This document shows, in pieces, positions 2,185-31,787 of a DNA stretch of 33,125 nucleotides (the first letter of the stretch is position 1; each line of letters begins with the position of its first letter). The position numbers and the translations under genes were made by a program. The notes beneath the pieces are model-generated. The model searched no databases and was not told the DNA's origin. It worked only from the letters and a program-made list of their open reading frames with translations. This stretch comes from a virus (Duplodnaviria > Heunggongvirae > Uroviricota > Caudoviricetes): the IMG/VR virus record IMGVR_UViG_2718218402_000003; one strand, written 5' to 3'.

Positions 2185-2246
2185 CCCGTCACAACCACAT
2201 CACGCTTGTTTTCACTTTTATCTTCTGTCTTCAGAGGTATCACACT

Positions 2247-2468: not shown

Positions 2469-2630
2469 TGTTCCGTCACCCGGAAAACGAGTACGACCAG
2501 ATGGACTCAGACGCCGCTGTGGATGAGGCCATTCTCGTCAATGCATACATCTTCACCGAAACCGGTCAGCGCGCCGGCTGACCTGTCATCGTTAAACCAT
2601 TCTTAACCACTTTTCAGAGAGGATTTTATC

Positions 2631-2999: not shown

Positions 3000-3088
3000 A
3001 CCACCGGAATAACCTTCTGCTCCGGCCTGGTGCTTTCACCACGCCACTTTTCCATTTTTCATCTCTGCATATCAGGAAAACCTTCAGT

Positions 3089-3463: not shown

Positions 3464-3948
3464 AACTTTCCCTGATGCTGGAAGCCAACAGAATTAATGT
3501 GCAGGCACTGAACATGGGGCGAATTGTCGTTGACGTCGATGGTGTTAATCTCACTGAACTGATTAACAAGGTCGCTGAAAACGGTTATTCACTCCGCGTG
3601 GTGGAGGAATCCGACCAACAGTCAACCTGCACACTACCACCGTTTGCAACCCTTGCCGGCATACGCTGCAGTACCGCACATATCACGGAAAAGGATAACG
3701 CCTGGCTGTACTCGCTGTCACACCAGACCAGTGACTTCGGTGAATCAGAATGGATTCATTTCACAGGTAGCGGATATCTGTTACGTACCGATGCGTGGTC
3801 ATATCCGGTTCTGCGGCTTAAACGCCTGGGGCTGTCAAAAACGTTCCGTCGTCTGGTTATCACACTTACCCGACGTTATGGCGTCAGTCTCATTCATCTG
3901 GATGCCAGCGCTGAATGCCTGCCGGGTTTACCCACTTTCAACTGGTAA
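3460..3948 (+). CDS. YeeW-like protein
   Basis: 162-aa ORF overlapping the cbtA stop by 4 nt; conserved position downstream of cbtA. Confidence 0.55.
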
Positions 3949-5150: not shown

Positions 5151-5357
5151 CTTCATTTTCACTTTCTTAAATCTAACGACAGATGGCTAACATTTAAGTA
5201 TTGTGAAATATTATCAAATGTAATCATCATTGATTTACAAAAGATACATTTTGCCCCGAAAGGATTTCTGTCAGAAACATCAAAAGATGATGTTCTATAC
5301 TGAGAACCATGGCAACACGGGCATCTAAAGTGAATATGGTTTGTAATATTTTCTACC

Positions 5358-5570
5358 TCAAAGTGCCACTACATGAACAGCTGCAGGGCCTTTAGGTCCG
5401 TTCTCAATACCAAATTCGACTTCCTGATTCTCAGTTAACGTTTTGAAATCGTTGCTCTGAATAGCTGAGAAATGCACAAACACATCTTTGCTACCATCTT
5501 TCGGCGTGATGAAACCAAAACCTTTTTCAGGGTTAAACCATTTCACTAAACCAGTCATTTTGTTAGACAT
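5358..5570 (-). CDS. cspI: Cold-shock protein, CspA family (Qin prophage CspI-like)
   Basis: 70-aa [21 protein letters not shown]...; RNP1-like KGFGFI motif; long AT-rich 5' leader upstream. Confidence 0.85.
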
Positions 5571-5933
5571 CATTATTACCTTTTGAAGAAGTTAGCCCTT
5601 GGGCAGAATGGTCCGAAAAAAAATATCAGAGAGAAAAACCAACAAGGAAATCTCAAGAGGTACAAATAATAAAATTATAACAATGACTGCTTCAGATAAT
5701 TTTGTAACAAACCAGAACACCATTAACGCATGATTAACCAACCATAGCAAGGATTACTTTTGTAAAGAAAAACACACGAATGAAACAATAGCTTTATTTA
5801 TTAATAAAACGTGTCATTCTGTCTAATGACCTTTTATCTTACCCCTAAGATTTCAAGGATTTTGACTCATGGAAGAGTCCTTTTTATTTAAATTTCACAT
5901 TCAGCGCTAAAAATAATCCGATTTAATATTAAT

Positions 5934-7679: not shown

Positions 7680-8402
7680 CTAAGAAAATCTTGATAAATA
7701 TTGGTGCGGAGGCACACCAAAATATCCTCTAAAAACACTTACAAAATATGATGCATTGTCATACCCGCATATTCCCGCCACCTTGCCGACAGTATGGTTA
7801 CTGTAGATCAATAATCTTTGCGCCATCATCATTCGTTCTTCAAGAATTAATTTACTAAACGATAATCCTTCGTCTTTTAATTTTCTTTTTAACAAACTCT
7901 CGCTCATATATAATCTTGAAGATATATCACAAAGTCTCCATGACGCTGAGATATCCGAGTGAATAATAGCCTTAACTTTACAACCTAAGCTATTAAGACT
8001 TCCGAACAAAAAACTTTGCACCATTTTCTCTGAAGATAAGACAGCAAGACATGCAAGTGATATTTGATTGCTAACTACATCCACGGTTTTGCTATCACAA
8101 TTCAAGCATGCAACCAAGTTCTTTAACAATGAAAAATCTTCACATTCTACTATCAAGTATGACGGATAAAACCTTCTTACAGAAAAAGGTGAGAGTGTGT
8201 AGTTTTTAAAGAAATCATTAACTGTTTTCTCCTCAACATCTACGATCATTAGATGATCTGTATTTGACGAAAAAAGATCTTTTAAATTGTATTCAATGAG
8301 GACAGCATTTCCTTTTTTAAACAAAATATCTTCTTTACCAATTCGGACACCAAACGAGTTCAACACCAAAATGATAGAACATATGTATGGCATATTATCC
8401 AC
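7680..8402 (-). CDS. AraC-family transcriptional regulator (AppY/EnvY/PerA-like)
   Basis: 240 aa with C-terminal AraC-type HTH region; gene is markedly AT-rich relative to flanks. Confidence 0.75.
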   Translation of the reverse strand: MDNMPYICSIILVLNSFGVRIGKEDILFKKGNAVLIEYNLKDLFSSNTDHLMIVDVEEKTVNDFFKNYTLSPFSVRRFYPSYLIVECEDFSLLKNLVACLNCDSKTVDVVSNQISLACLAVLSSEKMVQSFLFGSLNSLGCKVKAIIHSDISASWRLCDISSRLYMSESLLKRKLKDEGLSFSKLILEERMMMAQRLLIYSNHTVGKVAGICGYDNASYFVSVFRGYFGVPPHQYLSRFS

Positions 8403-9759: not shown

Positions 9760-10160
9760 TTCCTCCCCCTTGACTAATTCATTAACACATAAACTTTGTA
9801 GTGCACGGACTAAATTGCCTTTCTGGCTTCATCACTGACAATTTTTCTGTTATTGACTATTCCTAATATAGTAGGAAAGTTCTTTAAGTGATCGGTCGTA
9901 CTCATCTATCTTTCATACTTACTCTCAACTATCAAAAGTACAGGATTTATTATGAAGTTATGGCCTGTGTTGACTGGCATTGCACTCTCTTTCACTCTTA
10001 TAGCATGTAAGGCCCCGACACCACCTAAAGGTGTGCAGCCGATTACAAATTTTGACGCCAACCGCTACCTCGGAAAATGGTATGAAATAGCTCGCTGATC
10101 TTACCCAGCAATAGTGGACACGCGGCTAAGTGAGTAAACTCTCAGTCAGAGGTGACTCAC

Positions 10161-10460
10161 ATGACAAAAACAGTATCAACCAGTAAAAAACCCCGTAAAC
10201 AGCATTCGCCTGAATTTCGCAGTGAAGCCCTGAAGCTTGCTGAACGCATCGGTGTTACTGCCGCAGCCCGTGAACTCAGCCTGTATGAATCACAGCTCTA
10301 CAACTGGCGCAGTAAACAGCAAAATCAGCAGACGTCTTCTGAACGTGAACTGGAGATGTCTACCGAGATTGCACGTCTCAAACGCCAGCTGGCAGAACGG
10401 GATGAAGAGCTGGCTATCCTCCAAAAGGCCGCGACATACTTCGCGAAGCGCCTGAAATGA
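10161..10460 (+). CDS. insE: IS3 OrfA (InsE-like)
   Basis: 99 aa from ATG 10161; HTH plus leucine-zipper-like region. Confidence 0.85.
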
Positions 10461-11323
10461 AGTATGTCTTTATTGAAAAACATCAGGCTGAGTTCAGCAT
10501 CAAAGCAATGTGCCGCGTGCTCCGGGTGGCCCGCAGCGGCTGGTATACGTGGTGTCAGCGGCGGACAAGGATAAGCACGCGTCAGCAGTTCCGCCAACAC
10601 TGCGACAGCGTTGTCCTCGCGGCTTTTACCCGGTCAAAACAGCGTTACGGTGCCCCACGCCTGACGGATGAACTGCGTGCTCAGGGTTACCCCTTTAACG
10701 TAAAAACCGTGGCGGCAAGCCTGCGCCGTCAGGGACTGAGGGCAAAGGCCTCCCGGAAGTTCAGCCCGGTCAGCTACCGCGCACACGGCCTGCCTGTGTC
10801 AGAAAATCTGTTGGAGCAGGATTTTTACGCCAGTGGCCCGAACCAGAAGTGGGCAGGAGACATCACGTACTTACGTACAGATGAAGGCTGGCTGTATCTG
10901 GCAGTGGTCATTGACCTGTGGTCACGTGCCGTTATTGGCTGGTCAATGTCGCCACGCATGACGGCGCAACTGGCCTGCGATGCCCTGCAGATGGCGCTGT
11001 GGCGGCGTAAGAGGCCCCGGAACGTTATCGTTCACACGGACCGTGGAGGCCAGTACTGTTCAGCAGATTATCAGGCGCAACTGAAGCGACATAATCTGCG
11101 TGGAAGTATGAGCGCAAAAGGTTGCTGCTACGATAATGCCTGCGTGGAAAGCTTCTTTCATTCGCTGAAAGTGGAATGTATCCATGGAGAACACTTTATC
11201 AGCCGGGAAATAATGCGGGCAACGGTGTTTAATTATATCGAATGTGATTACAATCGGTGGCGGCGGCACAGTTGGTGTGGCGGCCTCAGTCCGGAACAAT
11301 TTGAAAACCAGAACCTCGCTTAG
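10457..11323 (+). CDS. insF: IS3 OrfB transposase (InsF-like, DDE catalytic domain)
   Basis: 288 aa in the -1 frame relative to orfA with TGA/ATG overlap; matches IS3 InsF as I recall it. Confidence 0.9.
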
Positions 11324-14075: not shown

Positions 14076-14231
14076 TTACTCCTCAGGTTCGTAAGCTGTG
14101 AAGACAGCGACCTCCGTCTGGCCGGTTCGGATTCGTACCTCGCAGAGGTCTTTCCTCGTTACCAGTGCCGTCACTATGACGGTTAAACAGATGACGATCA
14201 GGGCGATTAACATCGCCTTTTGCTGCTTCAT
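14076..14231 (-). CDS. hokD: Hok/Gef-family type I toxin (HokD/RelF-like)
   Basis: 51 aa MKQQKAMLIALIVICLTVIVTALVTRKDLCEVRIRTGQTEVAVFTAYEPEE; AAGGAGAAG Shine-Dalgarno before ATG 14231; the track ORF extends upstream in frame. Confidence 0.85.
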   Translation of the reverse strand: MKQQKAMLIALIVICLTVIVTALVTRKDLCEVRIRTGQTEVAVFTAYEPEE

Positions 14232-14906
14232 AGCCTGCTTCTCCTTGCCTTTCGGCACGTAAGAGGCTAACCTAGATTTGCCGTTCATAGATTGAGCCTC
14301 AGATTAATGTTAAGCGTCTTGCAGGACGCGTAATGTTAACTGGGGCTTTTCTCTATCTGCCGTTGGTGTTCATGCCTGAGACAGATAGCCTCAAGCACCC
14401 GCAGCCATTCTACTTAACTCCCGTCACCTCGCCAATATGAAATCAGTCAGAAAGGCGATCCATAAGAACAACAGCAAGGCAATAAATTGCCATTACAGCA
14501 GCAATAGCCAGCGCACATTTGAGAACCAGCACCACAACCTCCTGTATTGGACGTACACCAGTCCTGATAAATATGAGGCTGTCTCGTCAGTGATTCAATA
14601 CAACTATTGGGTATAGTTTCTGTGATTTTGTTCTGTAGAAATGGAACACAACAACCAGTCACCACCAGCACTTCTTTAAATACGCCAAGTCCGACGCAAG
14701 CTAACCTTCTAGGCCGCTTTGAGCGAAGAGCGGACGCTCGCATCTGTCCCAACACACTGAGGGCTTCACGAACACCTAGGTGTACTCGTCAACTGGGAAA
14801 AAGTCAGATTATCTGTAAGCGTACAGCCTGAACCGTCTGGTCAGAATCTGACGAATTAGACAAAGTGGTGTCCACCAAATAAGTAGTGGGAACCAAAGTA
14901 TCAGAT

Positions 14907-15287
14907 ATGCAGAAAAATGTGACTCCCGGCAGGCGAAAAGGCTGCCCTAATTATCCTCCCGAATTTAAACAGCAGCTCGTTGCTGCCTCCTGTGAACCCG
15001 GGATATCCATCTCAAAACTTGCTCTTGAAAATGGCATTAACGCCAATCTGTTGTTCAAATGGCGACAACAATGGCGCGAGGGAAAGCTGCTATTACCTTC
15101 TTCAGAGAGCCCCCAGCTACTTCCTGTGACTCTCGATGCAGCTGCCGAACAGCCAGAATCGCTCGCAGAGGACCCGGAAACCCTCAGTATCAGCTGTGAG
15201 GTAACGTTCCGGCACGGGACGCTCCGCTTCAATGGCAATGTCAGCGAAAAGCTCCTGACTCTGCTGATACAGGAACTGAAGCGATGA
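14907..15287 (+). CDS. IS66-family TnpA (orf1)
   Basis: ATG at 14907 (MQKNVTPGRRKG...); the track start at 14886 is a GTG. Confidence 0.8.
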   Translation: MQKNVTPGRRKGCPNYPPEFKQQLVAASCEPGISISKLALENGINANLLFKWRQQWREGKLLLPSSESPQLLPVTLDAAAEQPESLAEDPETLSISCEVTFRHGTLRFNGNVSEKLLTLLIQELKR

Positions 15288-15631
15288 TCCCGTTACCTTC
15301 CGGGACCAAAATTTGGCTGGTTGCCGGTATCACCGATATGAGAAATGGCTTCAACGGCCTGGCTGCGAAAGTACAAACGGCGCTGAAAGACGATCCCATG
15401 TCCGGCCATGTTTTCATTTTCCGGGGCCGCAGCGGCAGTCAGGTTAAACTGCTGTGGTCCACCGGTGACGGACTGTGCCTCCTGACCAAACGGCTGGAGC
15501 GTGGGCGCTTCGCCTGGCCGTCAGCCCGTGATGGCAAAGTGTTCCTTACGCAGGCGCAGCTGGCGATGCTGCTGGAAGGTATCGACTGGCGACAGCCTAA
15601 GCGGCTGCTGACCTCCCTGACCATGCTGTAA
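15284..15631 (+). CDS. IS66-family TnpB (orf2)
   Basis: 115 aa, overlapping tnpA stop; characteristic IS66 orf2. Confidence 0.85.
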
Positions 15632-15680
15632 ATCTCTTTATCCTGGTTGTCACAGAATAAGCCCGGTAAAATACGGGCTT

Positions 15681-17219
15681 ATGAACGACATCTCTTCTGA
15701 CGACATCTTCCTGCTGAAACAGCGCCTGGCCGAACAGGAAGCGCTGATCCACGCCCTGCAGGAAAAGCTGAGCAACCGGGAGCGCGAAATAGACCATCTG
15801 CAGGCGCAGCTGGATAAACTCCGCCGGATGAACTTCGGCAGTCGTTCCGAAAAAGTCTCCCGCCGTATCGCACAAATGGAAGCCGATCTGAACCGGCTTC
15901 AGAAAGAGAGCGATACGCTGACTGGTAGGGTGTATGACCCGGCAGTACAGCGTCCGTTGCGTCAGACCCGCACCCGTAAGCCGTTCCCTGAATCACTACC
16001 CCGTGACGAAAAGCGACTGTTGCCTGCGGCGCCGTGCTGCCCGAACTGCGGCGGTTCACTGAGCTATCTGGGCGAGGATACCGCCGAACAGCTGGAGTTG
16101 ATGCGTAGCGCCTTCCGGGTTATCCGGACGGTACGGGAAAAACATGCCTGTACTCAGTGCGATGCCATCGTGCAGGCACCTGCACCTTCGCGGCCCATCG
16201 AGCGGAGTATCGCCGGACCGGGGCTGCTGGCCCGCGTGCTGACCTCGAAGTATGCAGAGCACACCCCGCTGTATCGCCAGTCAGAAATATACGGCCGGCA
16301 AGGTGTGGAGCTGAGGCGTTCACTGCTGTCGGGCTGGGTGGATGCATGCTGCCGGCTGCTGTCTCCGCTGGAAGAGGCGCTTCATGGCTATGTCATGACT
16401 GACGGCAAACTCCATGCCGATGATACCCCGGTCCAGGTACTGCTGCCGGGTAATAAGAAGACGAAGACCGGGCGGTTGTGGGCGTATGTTCGTGATGACC
16501 GCAATGCAGGGTCAGCGTTGGCACCTGCAGTGTGGTTCGCTTACAGCCCGGACAGAAAAGGCATCCATCCGCAGACTCATCTTGCCTGCTTCAGCGGTGT
16601 GCTGCAAGCGGATGCGTACGCCGGGTTCAACGAGCTGTATCGCAATGGTGGGATAACGGAAGCTGCCTGCTGGGCTCATGCCCGCCGAAAGATCCACGAT
16701 GTGCACGTCCGCATCCCGTCAGCACTGACGGAAGAAGCCCTGGAGCAGATCGGTCAGTTGTACGCCATAGAGGCGGATATAAGGGGAATGCCGGCAGAGC
16801 AGCGGCTTGCTGAACGTCAGCGAAAAACGAAACCGTTGTTGAAATCCCTGGAAAGCTGGTTGCGTGAAAAGATGAAGACCCTGTCGCGACACTCAGAGTT
16901 GGCGAAGGCGTTCGCGTACGCACTTAACCAGTGGCCGGCACTGACGTACTATGCGAACGATGGCTGGGTGGAAATCGACAACAACATCGCTGAAAATGCC
17001 CTGCGGGCGGTCAGTCTGGGTCGTAAAAACTTCCTGTTCTTCGGCTCTGACCATGGTGGTGAGCGGGGAGCGCTACTGTACAGCCTGATCGGGACGTGCA
17101 AACTGAATGACGTGGATCCAGAAAGCTACCTTCGCCATGTGCTTGGCGTCATAGCAGACTGGCCGGTCAACCGGGTCAGCGAACTGCTTCCGTGGCGCAT
17201 AGCACTGCCAGCTGAATAA
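15681..17219 (+). CDS. IS66-family transposase TnpC
   Basis: 512 aa with N-terminal leucine zipper, CxxC...CxxC zinc finger and DDE region. Confidence 0.9.
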
Positions 17220-17329: not shown

Positions 17330-20300
17330 CTATGTATCTGAGCCAAACATAGAGCGCCGCCTTGTTATTTTATAATAAGTGGGATTTTCATTATCCACCT
17401 CAAAATCAGAGAAGAAGTGGTTATCTCTTAATGCTGTTAATAAACTTTGATTAGTTGAATCAACTTCAATTTTAGGTTTGCCTCGCCCCAAAATTTTACT
17501 GAACTCCGATAAACCAAGCAGATCAAGATACTCTTTGCAAGTCGTCTTACTCAAATCCTTACCCGGCAACAAAGCGATTAGCAGTGCTATTTTATTCTGC
17601 ATATTCAGTCCCTCTGCGACAAACAGGTTTTTTAGTAACGGTTCAGAAACATCATTAGGACTTGCTATCAATGCTGATATATCCTGTATTGCTCGACTCA
17701 AGATGAGCGACTGAGTAGAGGTTCCCCAAGTTTTATAAGATGACGTCAAGATTAGAAGTTCATCTGGTTTAAAATTATTTTCTAAAATATAGTCATTAAC
17801 GACCTGAGAGTAATTCTTACTATAAATAGCCAACGGAGTTTTAACAAACTCGAGTAGCTTAACTTTCAAATCATCATCAACTTTCCAAGAAAGTATTGAT
17901 ATAGCCTCATCCAAAATAAAGTTATCAATCGTCATTAATTCAACGTATGCCCTGATATTCTTATGAATATAATAGGAAAGTTGCTCTGAATAGTTATCTC
18001 GTATGAAATTAAGTGGCGCAACATTCATACGAATAATATTTTTATCCACTAATATTTTGAACTTATCACTCGCGATATTACTAGCGCTAAAGGATGTTTT
18101 ACAAATAATATTTAGTGAGCAAATTAATTTTTCATATTTATCATTTGATAAATCATTACAGATAACAATCGATTTAAATAATTTACCTTTAAGCTCGTTA
18201 TCAATATTAATATTTTGAAAATTCAGGTCTACATCAGTTCTATTGATAAATTCGATAAGTGAGTCATCCAGTCCATCAACATGTTCAAAATAAGAGACAA
18301 TATTTTCCTCAGAGCACACTGCTCTATCTTTATCCAACAAAGATGACCATAAAGATTCGCTCTCAACCTCACTCAGAGATGTCACGAAAGTTTGCAAAGC
18401 GTTTATATACTGGCCTTTTTGTTCATCAGATATTCCCTCATTATTAAGAACGGATAAAACAATGGATTCATCATCCACGATTGAACCATCACAACTAGAT
18501 AAAACCATATCCAGATAGTCCCTAATATGGTTATTAACATAACTAGCCAAGGGAGAATCAGGTTGTGACATCACTAGTGTATAGTTCTTATGGCGAATAT
18601 CATCTTCACTATTAAGCGTGTAAACCTTACTCAGCATTAAGGTCAGGTTGGAAAAATTAATATCATAAAGTGAATGCTGGTAAACCGCATCAAAGAGTAC
18701 TTTATTTGCGTTTTCAAATTTAATACTGACAAAAGAAACGTTAAGCAACTTAAAACCACTAATTAATTTGTCAACCTTCGGTTCTGATATTGCTAAATAA
18801 CCTGCCGAATCAGAGATGTAATCAGTCAGACAATCATCAATATTAATGGCCTCGATGGCGTCATTGGCAGAATAATAAAACGTGCCTATAGAGTAGAGTT
18901 TAACCCAATCAGCAGAAAATTCACTCTCTGTCAGCGCATAAGAAAAAAACTCAGGCCACTGTGTATTTAATCGATTAATGAAGACAGGCTGAGCCCTCTC
19001 AGTTTCAAAGTAACCACGAATAAACTCAACTCTTCTATCTTTTCTTAGTTGTTTGAATAAACGTTTTATTAAGTTTACCTGGGCTGGCGTTTGAAGCAGA
19101 TAAGCTAATAAATCAAAATTAAGCGCCTCTTCCTGTTCAAAATCCACTTCTCGAAGGCGGGCAACGACCAGCTTGGGGTTCTTGAGTTGATAAGTGAACT
19201 CTTTGCCTTTTTGATCGGTAATGCTGCGTAAAAACATCTTATCAATTCGACTCAGGCTATTTTCATAAAAATAGGTCATATAGTCGGTATAGGTTTCATC
19301 AATATAACCATCACGAATAAGGTATTTAAGCAAGTCAAAATACTCACTGCTTTTTATTTCATTAAAGTCTCTTTCCTCTCCAATTTCATTGGTATAGGTG
19401 AGTTTAAATATTTCATCAATGTTTTCTCTAGTTATTACTTCTTTAAGTCTTTTGTTTCTAGAATCAACCAAACTTTCTCTTGATCTTGATATAAGCTCAT
19501 TAATTTCTTCTATTTTACCATTAAATTTATTTTCAACACTTTCTTTTCTAGCCGCCCTTCTCTTTGCTATATCAGCTTTCTCAGCCTGATTATAGTGAGG
19601 ATGATTATTATATCTAGATAATTCCTTATCGTATATAGCATCAACCTCCTGACTAGAGTTGAGTATTTCATCATTGATTGCCTCAATCTCTTTTTTTCTA
19701 TCTCTAATATCTTTTTCTATTTTCTTTATTTCTTCAATAATAAGGTTGTCTTTTTCACTAAATATGGTATAAACCATACCTTGATTAAGTTGCAACTCAC
19801 TAAAATCTCTTGGGAAAATATTCTTATAGGCAATAATGGCCAACATTTTATTACAGTCAAGTTCTGTCGTGTTTAATTTGTTATAATAAATTTGAAATTC
19901 GTTATAAATATTCTTCAATATTCTCATATCATCAATATATAAAGACATCCCTTGTAGAAATCTTTCATTGAACAACTTGAGAATACCACCACCATCAAAA
20001 TGTGTGATAAACTGATCGTAAGAGTTAGAACTATCAACAACAGGAATAACTGGAATGATATAATCAAAGAATTTGGTTCTATCCTTCGAAATGAAGATAT
20101 CATCACGAAGCAAGTAAATAAAACGTAACGTCGATTTCTTGTGCCCTGCTGTGTCCCGTTGAATATTAACCAGTCTGTTAACCTCATGAAGACGTTCAAA
20201 GATGTTATTACTATTAAAACGGTCCATGTCTTCAAAAACAATGGCATCAGCATCAACGTTCTCGAAAAGGTACAATACTTCATTTAAATATCTATCGAAA

Positions 20301-20962
20301 TAAGACTCGTTACTTTCTTCAAAAATCTCTATTTCATTACCCTGTAAATTTATTTTCTTAAGAACATTACGATTCTTTTGGGTTTTTATTAACTTGTAAA
20401 TGAAAATACAAGATAGGATAGTACATATAAACCCACTAATTAAAAGCGTATCGTATTTAGTTGATAATGTAAGTAGTGTCTTTATATTACCTTCAGATAA
20501 AAGTGAAACAAACTTTTCCCACTTATTAAATAGCGTGATATGTAGTATCATAGCGATAAATAACACCGTAAAGATGGTGTTTATCACAATGTTGTTAGTT
20601 TTTATTTTTTTCTTTACTTTAAAATGTGTCTGGGGAATATCATCAGCATTAATTTGGTGAATTAACTGGTTAAGAACTTTACCTTCTAACGCGGTTTCAT
20701 TTATATCTTTACTTGGTTCATTAGTTTCAGCTTCCTCAATCGATCTGAAATGAGCAAGTGAGATATGAACAAACTTTATATTTGAATGACTTTTCTTATA
20801 GGATTCGATAAGACTACTTTTTCCTGCGCTATATTGCCCTGATATCGCAACATTTTTTAGATCGTTATTGGCAAAAACAAAATCTATCGCATTTTTATAT
20901 ACACCCAGCTCAACATCGCTGAACGGCGTTAACTTTTGAAATTTATAGCTATCATCACTCAT
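17330..20962 (-). CDS. Large (1210 aa) membrane-inserted P-loop NTPase, KAP/YobI-like; candidate stand-alone phage-defence or abortive-infection protein
   Basis: Walker A GQYSAGKS (aa 42-49, nt about 20816-20839), two predicted TM helices (aa about 125-145 and 172-192) between Walker A and Walker B IVFEDMD (aa 241-247); coiled-coil-like segment aa about 400-500; about 950 aa of unassigned C-terminal sequence; strongly AT-rich by eye; SD GGAAGGGA upstream; own terminator. CDS is certain, function is inferred. Confidence 0.6.
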   Translation of the reverse strand: MSDDSYKFQKLTPFSDVELGVYKNAIDFVFANNDLKNVAISGQYSAGKSSLIESYKKSHSNIKFVHISLAHFRSIEEAETNEPSKDINETALEGKVLNQLIHQINADDIPQTHFKVKKKIKTNNIVINTIFTVLFIAMILHITLFNKWEKFVSLLSEGNIKTLLTLSTKYDTLLISGFICTILSCIFIYKLIKTQKNRNVLKKINLQGNEIEIFEESNESYFDRYLNEVLYLFENVDADAIVFEDMDRFNSNNIFERLHEVNRLVNIQRDTAGHKKSTLRFIYLLRDDIFISKDRTKFFDYIIPVIPVVDSSNSYDQFITHFDGGGILKLFNERFLQGMSLYIDDMRILKNIYNEFQIYYNKLNTTELDCNKMLAIIAYKNIFPRDFSELQLNQGMVYTIFSEKDNLIIEEIKKIEKDIRDRKKEIEAINDEILNSSQEVDAIYDKELSRYNNHPHYNQAEKADIAKRRAARKESVENKFNGKIEEINELISRSRESLVDSRNKRLKEVITRENIDEIFKLTYTNEIGEERDFNEIKSSEYFDLLKYLIRDGYIDETYTDYMTYFYENSLSRIDKMFLRSITDQKGKEFTYQLKNPKLVVARLREVDFEQEEALNFDLLAYLLQTPAQVNLIKRLFKQLRKDRRVEFIRGYFETERAQPVFINRLNTQWPEFFSYALTESEFSADWVKLYSIGTFYYSANDAIEAINIDDCLTDYISDSAGYLAISEPKVDKLISGFKLLNVSFVSIKFENANKVLFDAVYQHSLYDINFSNLTLMLSKVYTLNSEDDIRHKNYTLVMSQPDSPLASYVNNHIRDYLDMVLSSCDGSIVDDESIVLSVLNNEGISDEQKGQYINALQTFVTSLSEVESESLWSSLLDKDRAVCSEENIVSYFEHVDGLDDSLIEFINRTDVDLNFQNINIDNELKGKLFKSIVICNDLSNDKYEKLICSLNIICKTSFSASNIASDKFKILVDKNIIRMNVAPLNFIRDNYSEQLSYYIHKNIRAYVELMTIDNFILDEAISILSWKVDDDLKVKLLEFVKTPLAIYSKNYSQVVNDYILENNFKPDELLILTSSYKTWGTSTQSLILSRAIQDISALIASPNDVSEPLLKNLFVAEGLNMQNKIALLIALLPGKDLSKTTCKEYLDLLGLSEFSKILGRGKPKIEVDSTNQSLLTALRDNHFFSDFEVDNENPTYYKITRRRSMFGSDT

Positions 20963-22814: not shown

Positions 22815-23316
22815 AATTCCATCCAGCTTTTTGTTGGTATTGCTGTCGATACGCAAGCTTGAAAGCAATTGCTTTTTCTATAAGTTCGTCAGTTTCACGA
22901 TCTACAACGGCAGGATCTGCAAAAAGCAGTCCGGATTCCACCACATCGCCATATTCTTTATTTAACCCGGCGATCATGTACGTAATACTTTTTCCATCAC
23001 TGATCTCACGATACAACCTGAAATCACTAATCCGGATAGCCTCCATAATCGCAGGCACTAGCGCCGTGAACTTTTCACGCTTATCCCTGGTGTCGATAGC
23101 CTTCCAGCGTTCGAATATCTTCACTCGATTAACGCCAAGCGCTCGCTGATCAACCGCGCCACCTTCATCTGTGACACGCTGAACATCGATGTTCGGGCGC
23201 TCTTTCAAAGCCCAGAATGCTTCAGTGATTAATATCGTCGCCTGCTCCTGTGTCATTCCTGGTCGACATATCCAGGCATCCAGAGCCTCACGAGCCTGTT
23301 CAGGAGTGATTTTCAT
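22795..23316 (-). CDS. YdaT-like protein (cII-position gene of Rac/Qin-type prophages)
   Basis: 173-aa ORF directly downstream of the cro-like dicC; pattern resembles Rac YdaT as recalled. Confidence 0.5.
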   Translation of the reverse strand: MKITPEQAREALDAWICRPGMTQEQATILITEAFWALKERPNIDVQRVTDEGGAVDQRALGVNRVKIFERWKAIDTRDKREKFTALVPAIMEAIRISDFRLYREISDGKSITYMIAGLNKEYGDVVESGLLFADPAVVDRETDELIEKAIAFKLAYRQQYQQKAGWNYESSFC

Positions 23317-23530
23317 TGTTCAACCGCCCCGCCCGCTTCGTCTTACGATATTCATCATAAACTTTGGGATCATACTGAAGCTCCCCGCCAGATGCCTCCT
23401 GTAGACGCATCGCGCGACCTTCGGGAACTAAATCCCCTTTCCAGCTATAAAGCGAAGCCAAACGAATACCTGCTGCTTGTGCAAGTTTTGTTTTTGAACC
23501 GAAATACAAAAGAGCGTCAGTTTTAAGCAT
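23300..23530 (-). CDS. dicC: Cro-like repressor DicC
   Basis: 76 aa MLKTDALLYFGSKTKLAQAAGI...; divergent from dicA. Confidence 0.85.
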   Translation of the reverse strand: MLKTDALLYFGSKTKLAQAAGIRLASLYSWKGDLVPEGRAMRLQEASGGELQYDPKVYDEYRKTKRAGRLNNENHS

Positions 23531-23544
23531 TTAAAACACCTTTA

Positions 23545-23564
23545 TTGTTAGTCATGACTAACAA
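23545..23564. promoter_or_regulatory. Perfect 20-bp palindrome TTGTTAGTCATGACTAACAA in the dicC-dicA divergent region (candidate operator)
   Basis: Exact dyad symmetry read from sequence; a related TTAGC-N4-GCTAA element lies at 23598-23611. Confidence 0.5.
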
Positions 23565-23613
23565 AATAGATGTTAACAAAAACATAGTCAATACGATTTA
23601 GCATTAGCTAACT

Positions 23614-24021
23614 ATGGAAACAAAAAATTTAACTATCGGCGAACGCATTAGGTATCGTCGGAAAAACCTCAAACACACCCAAAGGTCTCTTGCTAAAGCC
23701 CTGAAAATCTCCCATGTGTCTGTATCACAATGGGAACGGGATGATAGTGAACCTACAGGGAAGAACCTTTTTGCCCTCAGCAAAGTATTGCAATGCTCAC
23801 CAACATGGATTCTATTTGGCGATGAAGACAAGCAACCAACACCACCTGTTGAGAAGCCAGTTGCCTTATCCCCCAAAGAACTAGAGCTCCTTGAGCTGTT
23901 TAATGCACTGCCAGAATCAGAACAGGATACCCAGCTCGCCGAAATGCGAGCTCGAGTAAAAAACTTCAATAAACTCTTTGAAGAATTACTAAAAGCCCGT
24001 CAGCGGACAAATAAAAGATAA
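23614..24021 (+). CDS. dicA: cI-like immunity repressor DicA (XRE-family HTH)
   Basis: 135 aa METKNLTIGERIRYRRKNLKHTQRSLAKALKISHVSVSQWER...; matches DicA as recalled. Confidence 0.9.
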   Translation: METKNLTIGERIRYRRKNLKHTQRSLAKALKISHVSVSQWERDDSEPTGKNLFALSKVLQCSPTWILFGDEDKQPTPPVEKPVALSPKELELLELFNALPESEQDTQLAEMRARVKNFNKLFEELLKARQRTNKR

Positions 24022-24093
24022 CATCATCAATGAGTTATCTTTTACCACATCAATCATGTTAGCAATAACATACAAAATCACTTGACCTATATG

Positions 24094-24107
24094 TTAGCCA
24101 TGGCTAA
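24094..24107. promoter_or_regulatory. Palindrome TTAGCCATGGCTAA upstream of ydfA (candidate DicA operator at the dicB-operon promoter)
   Basis: Same TTAG-CATG-CTAA architecture as the core of the 23545 palindrome; imperfect dyad ATGTTA-N4-TAACAT at 24056-24071. Confidence 0.4.
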
Positions 24108-24187
24108 TCTTATTTGCATCAACACACCGCACGGTGTTCTCAGCAAACAGTTCCGCTACCCCGGCGTTAAGGGGAAATGAGGTCAAC

Positions 24188-24343
24188 ATGGATACTATCG
24201 ATCTTGGCAACAGCGAATCTCTGGTATGTGGCGTGTTCCCCAACCAGGACGGTACGTTCACCGCGATGACGTATACCAAAAGCAAAACGTTTAAAACCGA
24301 ATCTGGAGCGCGTCGCTGGCTGGAAAGAAATTCAGGTGGGTGA
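24188..24343 (+). CDS. ydfA: YdfA-like small protein (DUF1391)
   Basis: 51 aa MDTIDLGNSESLVCGVFPNQDG...; ATG at 24188 inside the track ORF. Confidence 0.7.
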   Translation: MDTIDLGNSESLVCGVFPNQDGTFTAMTYTKSKTFKTESGARRWLERNSGG

Positions 24344-24344
24344 T

Positions 24345-24473
24345 ATGGATTTCGACACAATCATGGAAAAGGCTTACGAAGAATACTTCGAAGGTCTTGC
24401 CGAAGGCGAAGAAGCTCTCAGCTTCAGCGAATTTAAACAGGCACTTTCCAGTTCGGCAAAATCTAACGGCTGA
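24345..24473 (+). CDS. ydfB: YdfB-like small protein (42 aa)
   Basis: Hand translation: MDFDTIMEKAYEEYFEGLAEGEEALSFSEFKQALSSSAKSNG; below the track length cutoff. Confidence 0.6.
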   Translation: MDFDTIMEKAYEEYFEGLAEGEEALSFSEFKQALSSSAKSNG

Positions 24474-24502
24474 TAAGCGAAACAGCACCGCGAGGAATCA
24501 GT

Positions 24503-24721
24503 ATGCAGAAACGAGAACCCGTCATCATCGCGCCAGACTATACCGATGATGAACTTTATGAGTGGATGCGCCAGAAAATTAATGCAGCGCAGGATCTGAA
24601 ATGGGCCAATGAAGCCAGGGCTAAGCAGGCTGAAAATCTGTCCGCTCTGGAGCAGGATATCACTAATCTGGAAAAAGCAGCGACATTAAGCATTGCCAGA
24701 ATGATTACATACCCGCGTTAA
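24503..24721 (+). CDS. ydfC: YdfC-like protein
   Basis: 72-aa ORF in the conserved position before dicF. Confidence 0.7.
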   Translation: MQKREPVIIAPDYTDDELYEWMRQKINAAQDLKWANEARAKQAENLSALEQDITNLEKAATLSIARMITYPR

Positions 24722-25061
24722 TAGCTAACCAACGAAGCTAAGGTTGGTAATTAAGGAGTTCTCCACGGATGAGGTGGAGTGCGTGCGCCGGACACGGGTG
24801 AGCATCCGGCACTGACAGTTTACTGAAAGGATATTTCCCTGAAAAGTCAGACCATAACGCGAAAGCGCACGGCGAGGTAGCTGGTTCATAGATAGCCTGT
24901 CGTTAAATTTTCGTCGACCGTGCGCTTCCGGTTGTGGCAATCCGCGAAATGGCGCGGCGGTAAGTATGGCGGGGTTATTCCTTCCCCGTTGAGGACACCG
25001 GGTTGTCAGGTTGACCATACGCTTAAGTGACAACCCCGCTGCAACGCCCTCTGTTATCAAT

Positions 25062-25124
25062 TTTCTGGTGACGTTTGGCGGTATCAGTTTTACTCCGTGA
25101 CTGCTCTGCCGCCCTTTTTAAAGT
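25062..25124 (+). ncRNA. dicF: DicF small regulatory RNA (ftsZ-targeting) with intrinsic terminator
   Basis: TTTCTGGTGACGTTTGGCGGTATCAGTTTTACTCCGTGACTGCTCTGCCGCCC followed by TTTTT; matches DicF as recalled; between ydfC and dicB. Confidence 0.8.
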
Positions 25125-25288
25125 GAATTTTGTGATGCGGTGAATGCGGCTGAGCGCACGCGGAACAGTTAAAACCAAAAACAGTGTTATGGGTGGATTC
25201 TCTGTATCCGGCGTTAATTGTTAACTGGTTAACGTCACCTGGAGGCACCAGGCACTGCATCACAAAATTCATTGTTGAGGACGCGATA

Positions 25289-25477
25289 ATGAAAACGTTA
25301 TTACCAAACGTTAATACGTCTGAAGGTTGTTTTGAAATTGGTGTCACTATCAGTAACCCAGTATTTACTGAAGATGCCATTAACAAGAGAAAACAAGAAC
25401 GGGAGCTATTAAATAAAATATGCATTGTTTCAATGCTGGCTCGTTTACGTCTGATGCCAAAAGGATGTGCACAATGA
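25289..25477 (+). CDS. dicB: Cell-division inhibitor DicB
   Basis: 62 aa MKTLLPNVNTSEGCFEIGVTISNPVF...; ATG at 25289 within the track ORF. Confidence 0.85.
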   Translation: MKTLLPNVNTSEGCFEIGVTISNPVFTEDAINKRKQERELLNKICIVSMLARLRLMPKGCAQ

Positions 25478-25665
25478 ATTCAGCATTTGTGCTTGTTCTG
25501 ACAGTTTTTCTTGTTTCCGGAGAGCCAGTTGATATTGCAGTCAGTGTTCACAGGACAATGCAGTAGTGTATGACTGCAGCAACCGAACAGAAAATTCCCG
25601 GTAACTGTTACCCGGTCGATAAAGTTATTCACCAGGATAATATCGAAATCCCGGCAGGTCTTTAA
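25474..25665 (+). pseudogene. ydfD: ydfD-like lysis gene with in-frame TAG at codon 31
   Basis: MNSAFVLVLTVFLVSGEPVDIAVSVHRTMQ-TAG(25564-25566)-CMTAATEQKIPGNCYPVDKVIHQDNIEIPAGL; overlaps the dicB stop (ATGA). Confidence 0.55.
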
Positions 25666-27116
25666 AACAGTTCCGTAATAAATATCCGGTTTCATTCTTA
25701 TATGCCAGCAATGGCAGGGATTTGTTCATCCTTAAATCTGTCATGAGGTTAAAACAAATGAGTAAAGTCTTTATTTGCGCCGCTATTCCTGACGAACTGG
25801 CAACAAGGGAAGAAGGCGCTGTGGCTGTAGCCACAGCCATTGAAGCTGGCGACGAACGCCGTGCTCGAGCAAAATTTCACTGGCAATTCCTGGAACATTA
25901 TCCGGCTGCTCAGGACTGCGCTTATAAATTTATTGTCTGCGAGGATAAACCTGGCATACCCCGCCCTGCCCTCGATTCATGGGATGCTGAATATATGCAG
26001 GAAAACCGCTGGGATGAGGAGTCTGCTTCTTTTGTCCCGGTTGAGACTGAATCCGATCCGATGAACGTCACTTTTGACAAGCTGGCCCCTGAAGTACAGA
26101 ACGCTGTCATGGTTAAGTTCGACACATGTGAAAAAATCACCGTTGATATGGTTATTAGCGCACAGGAATTGTTGCAGGAAGACATGGCAACATTCGACGG
26201 ACATATCGTTGAAGCGTTGATGAAAATGCCAGAAGTTAACGCCATGTATCCGGAGCTTAAGTTGCACGCCATTGGGTGGGTTAAGCATAAATGTATTCCT
26301 GGTGCTAAATGGCCCGAAATTCAGGCAGAGATGCGCATCTGGAAAAAACGTCGCGAAGGTGAACGCAAGGAAACCGGAAAATACACGTCTGTTGTTGATC
26401 TCGCCCGCGCCAGAGCCAATCAACAGTACACTGAAAATTCAACAGGAAAAATCAGCCCGGTCATTGCTGCCATTCATCGCGAATACAAGCAGACATGGAA
26501 AACACTGGATGACGAACTGGCCTACGCTCTCTGGCCTGGTGATGTGGATGCTGGAAACATTGACGGCAGCATCCATCGCTGGGCAAAAAAAGAAGTTATC
26601 GACAACGACCGCGAAGACTGGAAGCGTATCTCGGCATCAATGCGCAAACAGCCTGATGCCCTTCGCTACGACCGCCAAACTATTTTTGGCCTTGTCCGTG
26701 AGCGTCCGATCGACATTCACAAAGATCCCGTAGCACTGAACAAATATATCTGCGAATACCTGACGACAAAGGGCGTGTTTGAGAATGAAGAAACAGACCT
26801 GAGCACTGTTGATGTTCTCCAGTCATCAGAAACACAAACTGATGCAGTGGAAACTGAGGTATCTGATATCCCAAAAAATGAAACCGCGCCGGAAGCTGAA
26901 CCATCTGTAGAGCGTGAGGGGCCGTTCTATTTCCTCTTCGCAGATAAGGACGGAGAAAAATACGGTCGCGCAAACAAACTTTCTGGTCTGGATAAGGCAC
27001 TGGCTGCTGGCGCCACTGAAATCACAAAAGAAGAATATTTTGCCCGAAAAAATGGCACATACTGAACCGCCCCGGGAATCCTGGAGACTAAACTCCCTGA
27101 GAAAGAGGTAAACAGG

Positions 27117-27443
27117 ATGACTAAAAATACACGTTTTTCCCCCGAGGTCCGTCAACGGGCAGTTCGTATGGTTCTGGAAAGTCAGGGCGAATATGACTCA
27201 CAATGGGCGGCAATTTGTTCCATTGCCCCAAAGATTGGCTGTACGCCAGAGACTCTGCGAGTGTGGGTTCGTCAGCATGAACGGGATACCAGGAGTGGTG
27301 ATAGTGGACTCACCACCGCTGAACGTCAGCGTCTGAAAGAGCTGGAACGTGAAAATCGTGAACTGCGCCGCAGTAACGATATCCTTCGCCAGGCTTCCGC
27401 TTATTTTGCGAAGGCGGAGTTCGACCGCCTCTGGAAAAAATAA
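27117..27443 (+). CDS. IS629-like OrfA
   Basis: 108 aa [22 protein letters not shown]... Confidence 0.85.
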
Positions 27444-28330
27444 TGCCACTGCTGGATAAGCTGCGTGAGCAGTACGGGGTCGGACCGGTATGCAGTGAAC
27501 TGCATATTGCCCCGTCAACGTATTACCACTGTCAGCAACAGCGACATCATCCTGATAAACGTAGTGCCCGTGCGCAGCGCGATGACTGGCTGAAGAGAGA
27601 GATACAGCGCGTATACGATGAAAATCATCAGGTGTACGGTGTGCGTAAAGTCTGGCGCCAGTTGTTACGCGAAGGTATCAGGGTGGCCAGATGTACAGTG
27701 GCGCGCCTCATGGCGGTTATGGGACTTGCCGGTGTTCTCCGGGGTAAAAAGGTCCGTACTACCGTCAGCCGGAAAGCCGTTTCCGCAGGCGACCGCGTAA
27801 ACCGTCAGTTCGTGGCAGAACGTCCTGACCAGCTGTGGGTGGCTGATTTTACTTACGTCAGCACATGGCAGGGCTTCGTCTATGTGGCGTTCATCATTGA
27901 TGTGTTTGCCGGATGCATCGTGGGGTGGCGAGTCTCATCGTCTATGGAAACGACATTCGTGCTGGATGCACTGGAGCAGGCGTTGTGGGCCCGTCGGCCG
28001 TCCGGCACAGTCCATCACAGTGATAAAGGTTCTCAGTATGTATCACTGGCCTATACGGAGCGACTAAAAGAAGCAAAACTGCTGGCATCAACAGGGAGTA
28101 CAGGTGACTCGTATGACAACGCGATGGCGGAGAGCATCAATGGTCTTTACAAAGCGGAGGTAATACACCGTAAGAGCTGGAAAAACCGTGCAGAAGTGGA
28201 ACTGGCCACACTCACGTGGGTGGACTGGTATAACAATCGACGATTGCTGGGAAGGCTGGGTCATATCCCTCCGGCAGAAGCAGAAAAAGCTTATTATGCT
28301 TCCATCAGAAACGATGATCTGGCAGCCTGA
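27443..28330 (+). CDS. IS629-like OrfB transposase (DDE)
   Basis: 295 aa in the -1 frame relative to orfA (TAATG overlap). Confidence 0.9.
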   Translation: MPLLDKLREQYGVGPVCSELHIAPSTYYHCQQQRHHPDKRSARAQRDDWLKREIQRVYDENHQVYGVRKVWRQLLREGIRVARCTVARLMAVMGLAGVLRGKKVRTTVSRKAVSAGDRVNRQFVAERPDQLWVADFTYVSTWQGFVYVAFIIDVFAGCIVGWRVSSSMETTFVLDALEQALWARRPSGTVHHSDKGSQYVSLAYTERLKEAKLLASTGSTGDSYDNAMAESINGLYKAEVIHRKSWKNRAEVELATLTWVDWYNNRRLLGRLGHIPPAEAEKAYYASIRNDDLAA

Positions 28331-29614
28331 GTTCACAGATAAAACACTCTCCAGGAAAACCGGGGCGGTTCATACACGGGCTTACCGCAAAATGTAGATA
28401 CCGCTGAAGATTCAGAACAACCAGAGCCGATAAAAGTTACCGCTGACGAAGTAAACAAAATTATGCAGGCAGCCAATATCAGCCAGCCTGACGCCGATAA
28501 GTTGCTTGCTGCATCACGTGGTGAATTTGTTGAAGGGATTAGTGACCCGAATGATCCGAAATGGGTTAAGGGGATCCAGACCCGCGATTCTGTGAACCAG
28601 AACCAGCATGAATCGGAACGGAACTACCAAAAAGCGGAACAAAACAGTCCAAATGCGTTACAAAACGAGCCAGAAACGAAACAGCCTGAACCAGTGGCGC
28701 AACAGGAAGTGGAAAAAGTCTGCACCGCCTGCGGTCAGACCGGCGGCGGCAACTGCCCTGATTGTGGCGCGGTGATGGGCGACGCAACATACCAAGAAAC
28801 ATTCGATGAAGAGTATCAGGTTGAAGTTCAGGAAGATGATCCGGAGGAAATGGAAGGCGCTGAACATCCACACAAGGAGAACACTGGCGGCAATCAGCAT
28901 CACAATAGCGATAATGAAACTGGCGAGACGGCAGATCACCCAATTAAGGTGAACGGTCATCACGAAATCACATCCACCAGCAGGACGTGTGACCATCTAA
29001 TGATCGACCTTGAAACCATGGGAAAAAATCCTGATGCCCCGATCATCTCAATAGGTGCAATATTTTTCGATCCGCAAACCGGAGATATGGGACCGGAATT
29101 TAGTAAGACTATCGATCTGGAAACTGCTGGCGGAGTCATTGATCGGGACACCATTAAATGGTGGCTTAAGCAATCACGCGAAGCGCAATCTGCCATTATG
29201 ACCGATGAAATCCCGTTAGATGATGCACTGTTACAATTGCGGGAATTTATCGACGAAAACTCCGGTAAATTTTTTGTTCAGGTTTGGGGAAATGGAGCCA
29301 ACTTCGACAACACGATTTTGCGCCGTTCATACGAACGGCAGGGGATCCCCTGCCCGTGGCGTTACTACAACGATCGCGATGTACGCACAATCGTTGAGCT
29401 GGGGAAAGCCATAGACTTCGATGCCAGAACGGCTATTCCATTCGAAGGTGAGCGCCATAATGCACTTGATGACGCCCGTTACCAGGCAAAATACGTTTCA
29501 GTTATCTGGCAAAAACTGATCCCGAGTCAGGCTGATTCTTAATGTTCAACTGTCGCCGGTTGTGACTGGTATTCTGCAACCGGCGCTCGTCTGATGTAAG
29601 AGATAAAGAAATCG

Positions 29615-29905
29615 ATGAGCGAAGTAATCATGATTGTCTCTCCCGGCAAATGGGTATCCGAAGAGCAGTTAATTGCGCTGAAAGGAATAAAAAAAGGTAC
29701 GTTAAAAAAGGCCCGGGAAAAATCGTTTATGGAAGGAAGGGAATATAAGCATGTCGCTCATGACGGTATGCCATGGGATAACAGTCCATGCTTTTACAAC
29801 CTGGAAGAAATTGATCGCTGGATTGAGCGCCAGGCATCAGCGAGACCAAGAGTAACCGGCTCATTTAAACCGTCTGGTCTGTTTCCTCCGGCTCTACAAA
29901 AATAA
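29615..29905 (+). CDS. Excisionase-like protein (putative Xis)
   Basis: 96-aa ORF between the exonuclease and int; assignment by position and size only; its 3' end abuts an IS remnant. Confidence 0.4.
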   Translation: MSEVIMIVSPGKWVSEEQLIALKGIKKGTLKKAREKSFMEGREYKHVAHDGMPWDNSPCFYNLEEIDRWIERQASARPRVTGSFKPSGLFPPALQK

Positions 29906-30582
29906 TGTCCATCATTTTTAATGGACACTATCGTATGAAACACCGGACCTGGATCACTGAAGCTTTACGTCTTCACTTTGAAGAACATTTACCCCGGGTT
30001 GTGGCCGGGCGTCGCCTGGGTGTACCAAAATCAACAGTTTGTAGTATGTTCGTGCGCTTTCGGAGAGCTGGCCTTTCGTGGCCTTTGCCCGCAGGCATGT
30101 CGGAGCAGGAACTTGATGCCTGCCTTTACGGACAATTTTCCACGGTACCAGTCGTACGTCCTGAAAGCACCGTTATATCCGAAGCCCCCGTGGTAAAAAA
30201 ACGTCCCCGGCGGCCCAACTTCCCTTATGAGTTTAAAATCGCCTTAGTGGAGCAGTCACTGCAGCCCGGAGCCTGTGTGGCGCAGATCGCCCGGGAAAAC
30301 GGAATCAACGATAACCTGCTCTTCAACTGGCGCCATCAATACCGGAAAGGTGGCCTGCTGCCTTCCGGAAAAAATATGCCGGCACTGCTTCCCGTGACGT
30401 TAACGCCGGAGCCGGATAATAAAATCCCGGCCCCCGCACAGGAACCAGAGCAGATAAATACACCGTCCGACAGTCTGTGTTGTGAGCTGATTCTGCCGGC
30501 CGGAACTCTCAGGCTTAAAGGTAAACTGACGCCGGCGTTATTACAGACACTTATCCGCGAAATGAAAGGGAGCAGCCACTGA
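29905..30582 (+). CDS. Chimeric ORF: unidentified HTH-like N-terminus fused to an IS66-family TnpA homologue
   Basis: C-terminal part (from about aa 95: [20 protein letters not shown]...[16 protein letters not shown]...) parallels TnpA at 14907-15287; N-terminal part ([11 protein letters not shown]...) does not. Confidence 0.45.
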
Positions 30583-31787
30583 TGATATCTCTCCCTGCCG
30601 GTTCTCTGGGATGTGATGTGTCAGAGCAACTGGAGCTTATCAGCAGCGCCTTTAAGGTTATCGAAACACAACGTCCGAAACTGGCCTGTTGCCGGTGCGA
30701 CCATATCGTGCAGGCACCGGTGCCTTCAAAACCCATTGCACGCAGTTATGCCGGAGCGGGGCTCCTGGCCCATGTCGTCACCGGAAAATATGCAGACCAT
30801 CTGCCGTTATACCGCCAGTCAGAGATATACCGCCGTCAGGGTGTGGAGCTGAGCCGTGCCACACTGGGGCGCTGGACTGGTGCCGTTGCTGAACTACTGG
30901 AGCCGCTGTATGACGTCCTGCGCCAGTATGTGCTGATGCCCGGTAAAGTCCATGCTGATGATATCCCCGTCCCGGTCCAGGAGCCGGGCAGCGGTAAAAC
31001 CCGGACAGCCCGGCTGTGGGTCTACGTCCGTGATGACCGTAACGCCGGTTCACAGATGCCCCCGGCGGTCTGGTTCGCGTACAGTCCGGACCGGAAAGGT
31101 ATCCATCCACAAAATCACCTGGCCGGTTACAGCGGTGTGCTTCAGGCCGATGCTTACGGTGGTTACCGGGCGTTATACGAATCCGGCAGAATAACGGAAG
31201 CCGCGTGTATGGCTCATGCCCGGAGAAAAATCCACGATGTGCATGCAAGAGCGCCCACCGACATCACCACGGAAGCCCTGCAGCGTATCGGTGAACTGTA
31301 TGCCATCGAGGCAGAGGTCCGGGGCTGTTCAGCAGAACAGCGTCTGGCGGCAAGAAAAACCAGAGCCGCGCCACTGATGCAGTCACTGTATGACTGGATA
31401 CAGCAACAGATGAAAACACTGTCGCGTCACTCAGATACGGCAAAAGCGTTCGCATACCTGCTGAAACAGTGGGATGCACTGAACGTGTACTGCAGTAATG
31501 GCTGGGTGGAAATCGACAACAACATCGCAGAGAACGCCTTACGGGGAGTGGCCGTAGGCCGGAAAAACTGGATGTTCGCGGGTTCCGACAGCGGTGGTGA
31601 ACATGCGGCGGTGTTGTACTCGCTGATCGGCACATGCCGTCTGAACAATGTGGAGCCAGAAAAGTGGCTGCGCTACGTCATTGAACATATCCAGGACTGG
31701 CCGGCAAACCGGGTACGCGATCTGTTGCCCTGGAAAGTTGATCTGAGCTCTCAGTAAATATCAATACGGTTCTGACGAGCCGCTTAC
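30140..31787 (+). mobile_element. Defective IS66-family element (internal deletion; left end degenerate)
   Basis: Right IR ...CAATACGGTTCTGACGAGCCGCTTAC ending 31787; left-IR-like sequence only partially recognisable around 30136-30170; tnpB and the 5' third of tnpC are absent. Left boundary is approximate. Confidence 0.55.
30582..31757 (+). CDS. N-terminally truncated IS66-family transposase (tnpB-start/tnpC fusion)
   Basis: 391 aa; MISLPAGS resembles the TnpB start MIPLPSGT; from [16 protein letters not shown] it aligns to TnpC residues about 128-512 of the intact copy. Confidence 0.8.

Follow-up and report, generated by a model that had tools for sequence, protein, structure and literature searches.

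YdfD of the Qin prophage in Escherichia coli K-12 is the closest described relative of the gene considered here. It is a 63-aa lysis protein of the DUF1482 family (PF07358) that binds IspG; a functional member is expected to lyse dividing cells when expressed. A second described system with which the gene can be compared is that of the lambda alleles Sam7 and Sam100, laboratory-selected amber mutations in the holin, a small membrane-associated lysis protein; in these mutants, lysis is abolished unless the host suppresses UAG. The YdfD polypeptide has been divided into an N-domain (residues 1–28) and a C-domain (residues 29–63) (Lu et al. 2022, PMC8835842). IspG was pulled down by the N-domain alone but not by the C-domain alone, the N-domain construct deltaC35 (residues 1–28) did not lyse cells when expressed by itself, and deletion work showed that killing needs both domains (PMC8835842). 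Furthermore, the loss of even 1, 2 or 5 residues at either end of the protein allowed cells to survive on plates, and two cysteines are conserved in YdfD (PMC8835842). The operon that encodes YdfD is repressed by DicA and is induced by the antirepressor Rem or, in rare cells, spontaneously, giving a ydfABC-dicFB-ydfD transcript (PMC10448788).

In this study, we analysed a 33,125-nt stretch of DNA from a virus of the class Caudoviricetes (IMG/VR record IMGVR_UViG_2718218402_000003), which we refer to throughout as the window. Its ydfD gene occupies the same position in the dicBF operon as the gene encoding YdfD in Qin of K-12 and specifies 62 of the same 63 residues, but it ends after residue 30, without the C-domain and both conserved cysteines. 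The identical nonsense allele, with 0–3 other differences over 801 bp, is carried by the ydfD pseudogenes of the RefSeq genomes E2348/69, FORC 064, C7, 19KM2326N and 98-3133. We consider it highly probable that ydfD in the window is a null or near-null gene created by one G-to-T transversion (GAG, Glu31, to TAG), and that it represents a rare but naturally circulating allele of a Qin-like dicB-ydfD module.

The dicBF operon of the window

Positions 23037–26524 of the window align with K-12 at 98.6% identity, from dicC/ydfX to ydfE. The alignment, together with Rfam and Pfam matches, revealed the gene order of a Qin-type dicBF locus: the dicA/dicC immunity region, ydfABC, DicF, dicB, ydfD and the exonuclease gene. 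Upstream of the operon, a 135-aa open reading frame (ORF) on the plus strand (23614–24021) corresponds in its aligned position to K-12 dicA and is a dicA-like repressor gene. The DicF small RNA gene, which belongs to the operon of dicB and ydfD, lies at 25063–25114 on the plus strand (Rfam RF00039, 76.7 bits against a gathering score of 48), and it is followed on the same strand by an intact dicB gene of 62 aa (25289–25477; full-length match to Pfam PF05358, E = 1.9e-40). As in K-12, ydfD is located directly downstream of dicB and overlaps its stop codon: the TGA of dicB and the ATG of ydfD at 25474 share the sequence ATGA. Judged from this overlap, an arrangement that implies translational coupling, the two genes would be translated in a coupled manner. 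A scan for promoters and terminators around ydfD returned counts no higher than those in shuffled sequence.

An in-frame amber codon interrupts ydfD

The ydfD gene (25474–25665, plus strand) translates as MNSAFVLVLTVFLVSGEPVDIAVSVHRTMQ, a stop, CMTAATEQKIPGNCYPVDKVIHQDNIEIPAGL and the native stop. In K-12 MG1655, the corresponding gene encodes the lysis protein YdfD (WP_001083297.1); codon 31 is GAG (Glu31), and the other 62 codons specify the same amino acids as those in the window. The original prediction had described the ORF as collinear with a 63-aa K-12 YdfD and had placed a TAG at codon 31, where K-12 was said to have Glu. Alignment with MG1655 bears out each of these points, including the stated length: 62 of the 63 positions are identical, and the only departure is the TAG at 25564–25566. 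Over the interval 25100–25900, the window and K-12 differ at just two bases, 25138 and 25564. Glu31 is likewise kept in all four sequenced phages that were compared (PhiR42_1, Tritos, mEp460_ev081 and vB_EcoS-640R1), in which the codon is GAG or GAA.

When Glu was restored at position 31, the translation matched the whole of the PF07358 profile (positions 1–57 of 57; E = 3.9e-26; 91.1 bits with a cut-off of 25). The stop codon falls between profile positions 27 and 30 of 57 and divides this single DUF1482 domain, so that the two halves match positions 1–27 and 30–57 separately. The uninterrupted frame of about 63 codons that a functional DUF1482 member needs is absent from this gene. On the strength of the profile match, the synteny and the 62 shared residues, the gene is best described as ydfD (DUF1482) by descent, in the form of a pseudogene.

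The frame that is left at the 5′ side (25474–25566, plus strand) comprises 30 codons and the stop and encodes MNSAFVLVLTVFLVSGEPVDIAVSVHRTMQ, which nearly coincides with the YdfD N-domain and matches the Pfam profile at positions 1–27 only. A 30-aa peptide, which had also been anticipated, is the straightforward predicted product of a TAG at codon 31. Both cysteines of the 63-aa protein (C32 and C45; there are no others) fall after the stop and are missing from residues 1–30. On the 3′ side, an ATG (Met33) is present at 25570–25572, 3 nt past the TAG, and the frame is open from there to the native stop. This leftover ORF (25570–25665, plus strand; 31 codons, Met33–Leu63) matches profile positions 30–57, and a restart product from it is conceivable but doubtful, as discussed below.

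A 71-aa antisense ORF (25480–25695, minus strand) spans all of ydfD in codon register with it. We considered this ORF as a possible gene and rejected it: an overlap of this sort commonly arises opposite a coding frame, the G-to-T change leaves Leu44 unaltered (CTC to CTA), and nothing else marked the ORF as a gene.

The amber allele is rare but real

How common is this allele, and could it be an artefact? Among 5,426 complete E. coli genomes, an 801-bp query around ydfD found many matches at 99.9% identity and none at 100%. The top match, FORC 064, contains the same TAG, and on account of an "internal stop" the NCBI pipeline classes its ydfD as a pseudogene. The alleles were counted by exact matching of two 61-mers centred on the site at 25564; about 3,490 of the complete genomes hold this stretch. 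Exact matches numbered 24 records for the TAG 61-mer and 1,867 for the GAG 61-mer, so that the TAG allele occurs in roughly 0.7% of the genomes with the stretch and is rare. Its carriers were obtained from human, cow, pig, chicken, dog, fish, giant panda, rabbit-farm, cucumber and seawater sources and include the EPEC reference strain E2348/69. In all five carriers that were inspected (FORC 064, E2348/69, 19KM2326N, C7 and O157:H16 98-3133), the gene bears the NCBI label "ydfD pseudogene, internal stop". Most carriers have more than one ydfD-like copy.

The difference at 25564 involves a single base, as would a sequencing or assembly error in the window that concealed a true G. Because the identical allele is present in 24 complete-genome records, which were independently assembled and come from varied hosts, a read error is very unlikely, and the TAG appears to be a real, inherited allele. 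Two further considerations speak against an error. The TAG sits on an upstream haplotype that the window has in common with FORC 064, E2348/69, 19KM2326N and C7 and that departs from K-12 at about 33 sites, and it is very improbable that a random error would fall exactly on a known rare allele. We therefore attach almost no weight to the reading in which the true base of the window is G.

In a collection of 15 billion proteins, exact copies of the 31-aa downstream product had been called on 80 contigs, those of the 30-aa upstream product on 13 and the intact YdfD protein on at least 1,000. Other truncated YdfD entries in the collection were considered as possible cases of recurrent inactivation and were set aside; nearly all of them are contig-end pieces with arbitrary cut positions, labelled "partial", and they do not represent independent nonsense alleles. 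The 31-aa ORF predicted by some gene callers on those 80 contigs should not be counted as a separate gene, and ydfD of the window should itself be labelled a pseudogene (internal stop) and not a lysis gene. RefSeq genomes, among them that of a reference pathogen, already give this allele the label of a pseudogene, and the finding is of a familiar kind. Only two details are mildly unexpected: an internal Shine-Dalgarno (SD)-like motif is also lost through the mutation, and the allele has reached several integration sites.

The FORC 064 genome (NZ_CP022664.1) has no exact GAG copy and contains the TAG allele twice, at 1974763–1974823 and 1993185–1993376, with about 18.6 kb between the two. The double copy could reflect a prophage segment that is duplicated or in tandem, or else a duplication introduced during assembly.

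Origin and spread among prophages

The wild O18:H1 strain CFSAN067215, in which an intact ydfD is annotated, differs from the window over the 801 bp solely by a G at 25564. Because the two sequences are otherwise identical, the TAG is a single step away from a haplotype that exists in the wild. From 24163 to 24941, the window, FORC 064, E2348/69, 19KM2326N and C7 share one haplotype, with about 33 differences from K-12; beyond 26021, the same five sequences fall into two groups. All four combinations of bases at sites 25138 and 25564 were observed: C and T in the window and 19KM2326N; T and T in FORC 064, E2348/69, C7 and 98-3133; C and G in CFSAN067215; and T and G in K-12. The occurrence of all four implies either recombination within 426 bp or recurrent mutation.

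The locations of the carrier prophages also vary. The prophage of E2348/69 adjoins potC, whereas those of C7, 19KM2326N and 98-3133 adjoin tRNA-Ser/mtfA. In the window, the prophage ends in an integrase gene that is 99.5% identical to K-12 intQ; the window itself ends inside this gene, and the chromosomal junction lies outside it. By analogy with K-12, the intQ-like integrase suggests that the prophage occupies the Qin site. TAG carriers are thus found at two or three different integration sites, and the flanking single-nucleotide differences show recombination. The simplest reading of these data is that the mutation would have arisen once and would later have been moved among lambdoid prophages by recombination; recurrent mutation may be an alternative origin of the allele.

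In O157:H16 98-3133, residue 2 of dicB is Glu and not Lys (METLL... as against MKTLL...; locus L011, 5756–5944). To judge from this dicB sequence, the amber allele appears to be carried on slightly diverged dicB backgrounds.

Suppression or recoding of the stop codon

We considered whether UAG might be read through. An amber suppressor in the host, or a high level of UAG read-through, would give full-length YdfD in which residue 31 is Gln, Tyr or another amino acid, and the allele would be conditional in the manner of lambda Sam7. The TAG allele would indeed be suppressed in laboratory K-12 derivatives with supE44, and the protein collection contains one full-length E31Q variant, a sign that Gln may be tolerated at position 31. 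Amber suppressors are, however, rare in natural E. coli isolates, and basal UAG read-through is low. No tRNA gene was detected in the window, and no tRNA with a CUA anticodon was found in the four carrier prophage loci, where the anticodons are tcg, tct, cat, cga and gtt. Nor is the stop conserved (about 0.7% of genomes with the stretch), as a programmed recoding site would require. We give a suppressed, full-length YdfD scarcely any chance of being the natural product of this gene.

Programmed read-through was rejected as a separate candidate. A recoding site is expected to conserve its stop among homologues, and here the counts of exact 61-mers run the other way, with 24 for TAG against 1,867 for GAG. 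Glu31 is kept in the four phages, Rfam contains no recoding element that matches at the TAG site, and the window lacks a suppressor tRNA.

Restart of translation at Met33

The original prediction had also proposed that the downstream part of the gene could be translated by reinitiation at the ATG near 25570. The ATG and its 31-codon ORF are indeed present, but initiation there is poorly supported by the surrounding sequence. The intact gene reads CAG-GAG-TGT-ATG and places an AGGAG motif 3 nt before the ATG of Met33, whereas the window reads CAG-TAG-TGT-ATG. The remnant AGTAG lies at 25562–25566 on the plus strand (the window has CAGTAGTGTATG, and K-12 and the phages PhiR42_1 and Tritos have CAGGAGTGTATG). 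Because the G-to-T change that makes the stop also destroys the only good SD-like motif, the case for a restart at Met33 is weak. The SD-like element that is left before Met33 is AGGA only, 13–14 nt upstream, with a predicted anti-SD pairing of -4.0 kcal/mol; for the genuine start codons of dicB, ydfD and the exonuclease gene, the predicted pairings are -5.9 to -6.3 kcal/mol at a spacing of 4–7 nt.

Could the split gene nevertheless work? Termination at the TAG followed by re-initiation at 25570 would yield two peptides, 1–30 and 33–63, which might keep some YdfD activity, either each by itself or in combination. Termination-reinitiation across such short distances is established for bacterial nonsense mutants; here only 3 nt separate the stop from the ATG, and no further stop interrupts the downstream frame before the native one. 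In addition, earlier work (Masuda et al. 2016), as far as it is cited in PMC8835842, found that the C-terminal domain alone retained reduced killing activity. Against this stand the loss of AGGAG, with the best remaining pairing at 13 nt being weaker than that of the three nearby starts, and the published deletions: deltaN28, a construct longer than the 33–63 fragment, failed in IspG binding, and an N-terminal deletion of as little as one residue already permits survival (PMC8835842). Moreover, Met33 is not conserved, residue 33 being Val (GTG) in mEp460_ev081. We regard a working restart as distinctly unlikely.

In intact ydfD genes (K-12, PhiR42_1 and Tritos), AGGAG stands 3 nt upstream of an in-frame Met33 (equivalent to 25562–25572 of the window; 3463–3473 of the K-12 locus L002). 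Given this motif, it is a possibility that intact ydfD might also make a 31-aa C-terminal peptide from an internal start.

Predicted effect on YdfD function

We propose the following course of events for a gene that simply terminates at codon 31. When the dicBF operon is transcribed, being otherwise repressed by DicA, ribosomes coupled from dicB through the ATGA overlap would start ydfD normally. RF1 would then release them at codon 31. The product would be a 30-residue peptide consisting of the hydrophobic, IspG-binding N-domain, and it would lack the acidic C-domain together with C32 and C45. The lysis function would be gone while the upstream dicB and DicF stay intact, and the ydfD lesion would be one among several decay events in a cryptic prophage.

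The published construct deltaC35 is nearly the same polypeptide as the predicted 1–30 product; it bound the N-domain of IspG in pull-downs and was non-lytic (PMC8835842). It differs from the product of the window in that it was engineered, GST-tagged and over-expressed, and it is two residues shorter (1–28 as against 1–30). Because the predicted product so nearly equals this non-lytic construct, and because both domains are needed for killing, we infer that the lytic activity of YdfD would be lost here with dicB and DicF left intact; the published truncations on which this rests are similar, not identical, to the product. With the toxin disarmed, the TAG allele would presumably be neutral or mildly advantageous. 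This adds a further, minor example to the cases in which a cryptic prophage has had a toxic gene disarmed and keeps the adjacent genes intact, here those for DicF and DicB, whose roles benefit the host. In practical terms, the allele is a natural near-equivalent of the YdfD N-domain construct and could be used in studies of YdfD-IspG binding.

By analogy, the window allele would act in the same way as lambda Sam7 and Sam100, being null unless UAG is suppressed, but it is natural, belongs to an unrelated protein family and concerns a different target (IspG).

It might be argued that the 1–30 peptide has acquired a role of its own. Such a peptide would retain the N-domain that binds IspG and be free of the inhibitory C-domain; by occupying IspG, it could shield the cell from the intact YdfD of a co-resident or superinfecting lambdoid phage and would in effect be a domesticated, dominant-negative anti-lysis peptide. 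The presence of multiple ydfD-like copies in most carriers, and of the allele at two or three sites on recombined backgrounds, could be read in this light. However, its occurrence at several integration sites on recombined backgrounds is also what would be expected from neutral spread by prophage recombination, and we think it highly improbable that the peptide has such a protective role. Loss of function by simple truncation is the reading that we retain.

Decay of the prophage and other features

The amber codon is not the only lesion in this prophage. The exonuclease gene downstream of ydfD (ydfE/exo VIII-like) is cut in two by an insertion sequence (IS) element. Its 5′ part (25758–27063, plus strand) aligns with the 2,472-bp exonuclease gene of FORC 064 up to 27063, and its 3′ part (28417–29542, plus strand) gives a partial match to the NCBIfam exodeoxyribonuclease VIII model (E = 2.3e-69). 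Between them lies an IS3-family element (27064–28416, plus strand), recognized by an ALIL frameshift pseudoknot (Rfam RF01497, 27398–27514), by a transposase match (NCBIfam, E = 4.9e-93) and by a break in the alignment with uninterrupted relatives. The window copy, with its split exonuclease gene and its integrase near-identical to intQ, differs in this respect from the RefSeq pseudogene copies, in which the exonuclease gene is uninterrupted. The insertion at 27064 is also unlike the situation in K-12, where IS2 truncates ydfE at approximately the window equivalent of 26525.

An IS66-family element occupies 29615–31757, between the exonuclease gene and the integrase, and two further IS elements are located at 10152–11323 and 14886–17219, giving four in the window overall. 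Apart from the one in the exonuclease gene, these comprise one IS3-family and two IS66-family elements, the second of the latter with a TnpA accessory gene and a transposase gene. None of the 5,426 complete genomes covers more than 72% of the window between 8200 and 33125. The ydfD nonsense mutation fits the ordinary erosion of a heavily damaged prophage.

Several other features of the window were noted. A 1,210-aa ORF at 17330–20962 on the minus strand has no NCBIfam match; near the equivalent position, related prophages are annotated with a 'P-loop ATPase, Sll1717 family', a 'YobI family P-loop NTPase' or an 'AIPR family protein'. These annotations suggest that the region is a variable cargo slot, possibly devoted to anti-phage defence. 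Within the prophage, an ORF at 7680–8402 (minus strand) encodes an AraC-family (YdeO-like) regulator. A sok antitoxin RNA is present at 14226–14400 (minus strand) as part of a hok/sok module, which is hokD-like in relatives. A cspA-type thermoregulator leader was found at 5312–5728 (minus strand). At the left end of the window, a RadC-family ORF (1693–2184, plus strand) was observed, and this end suggests an adjoining island of a different type.
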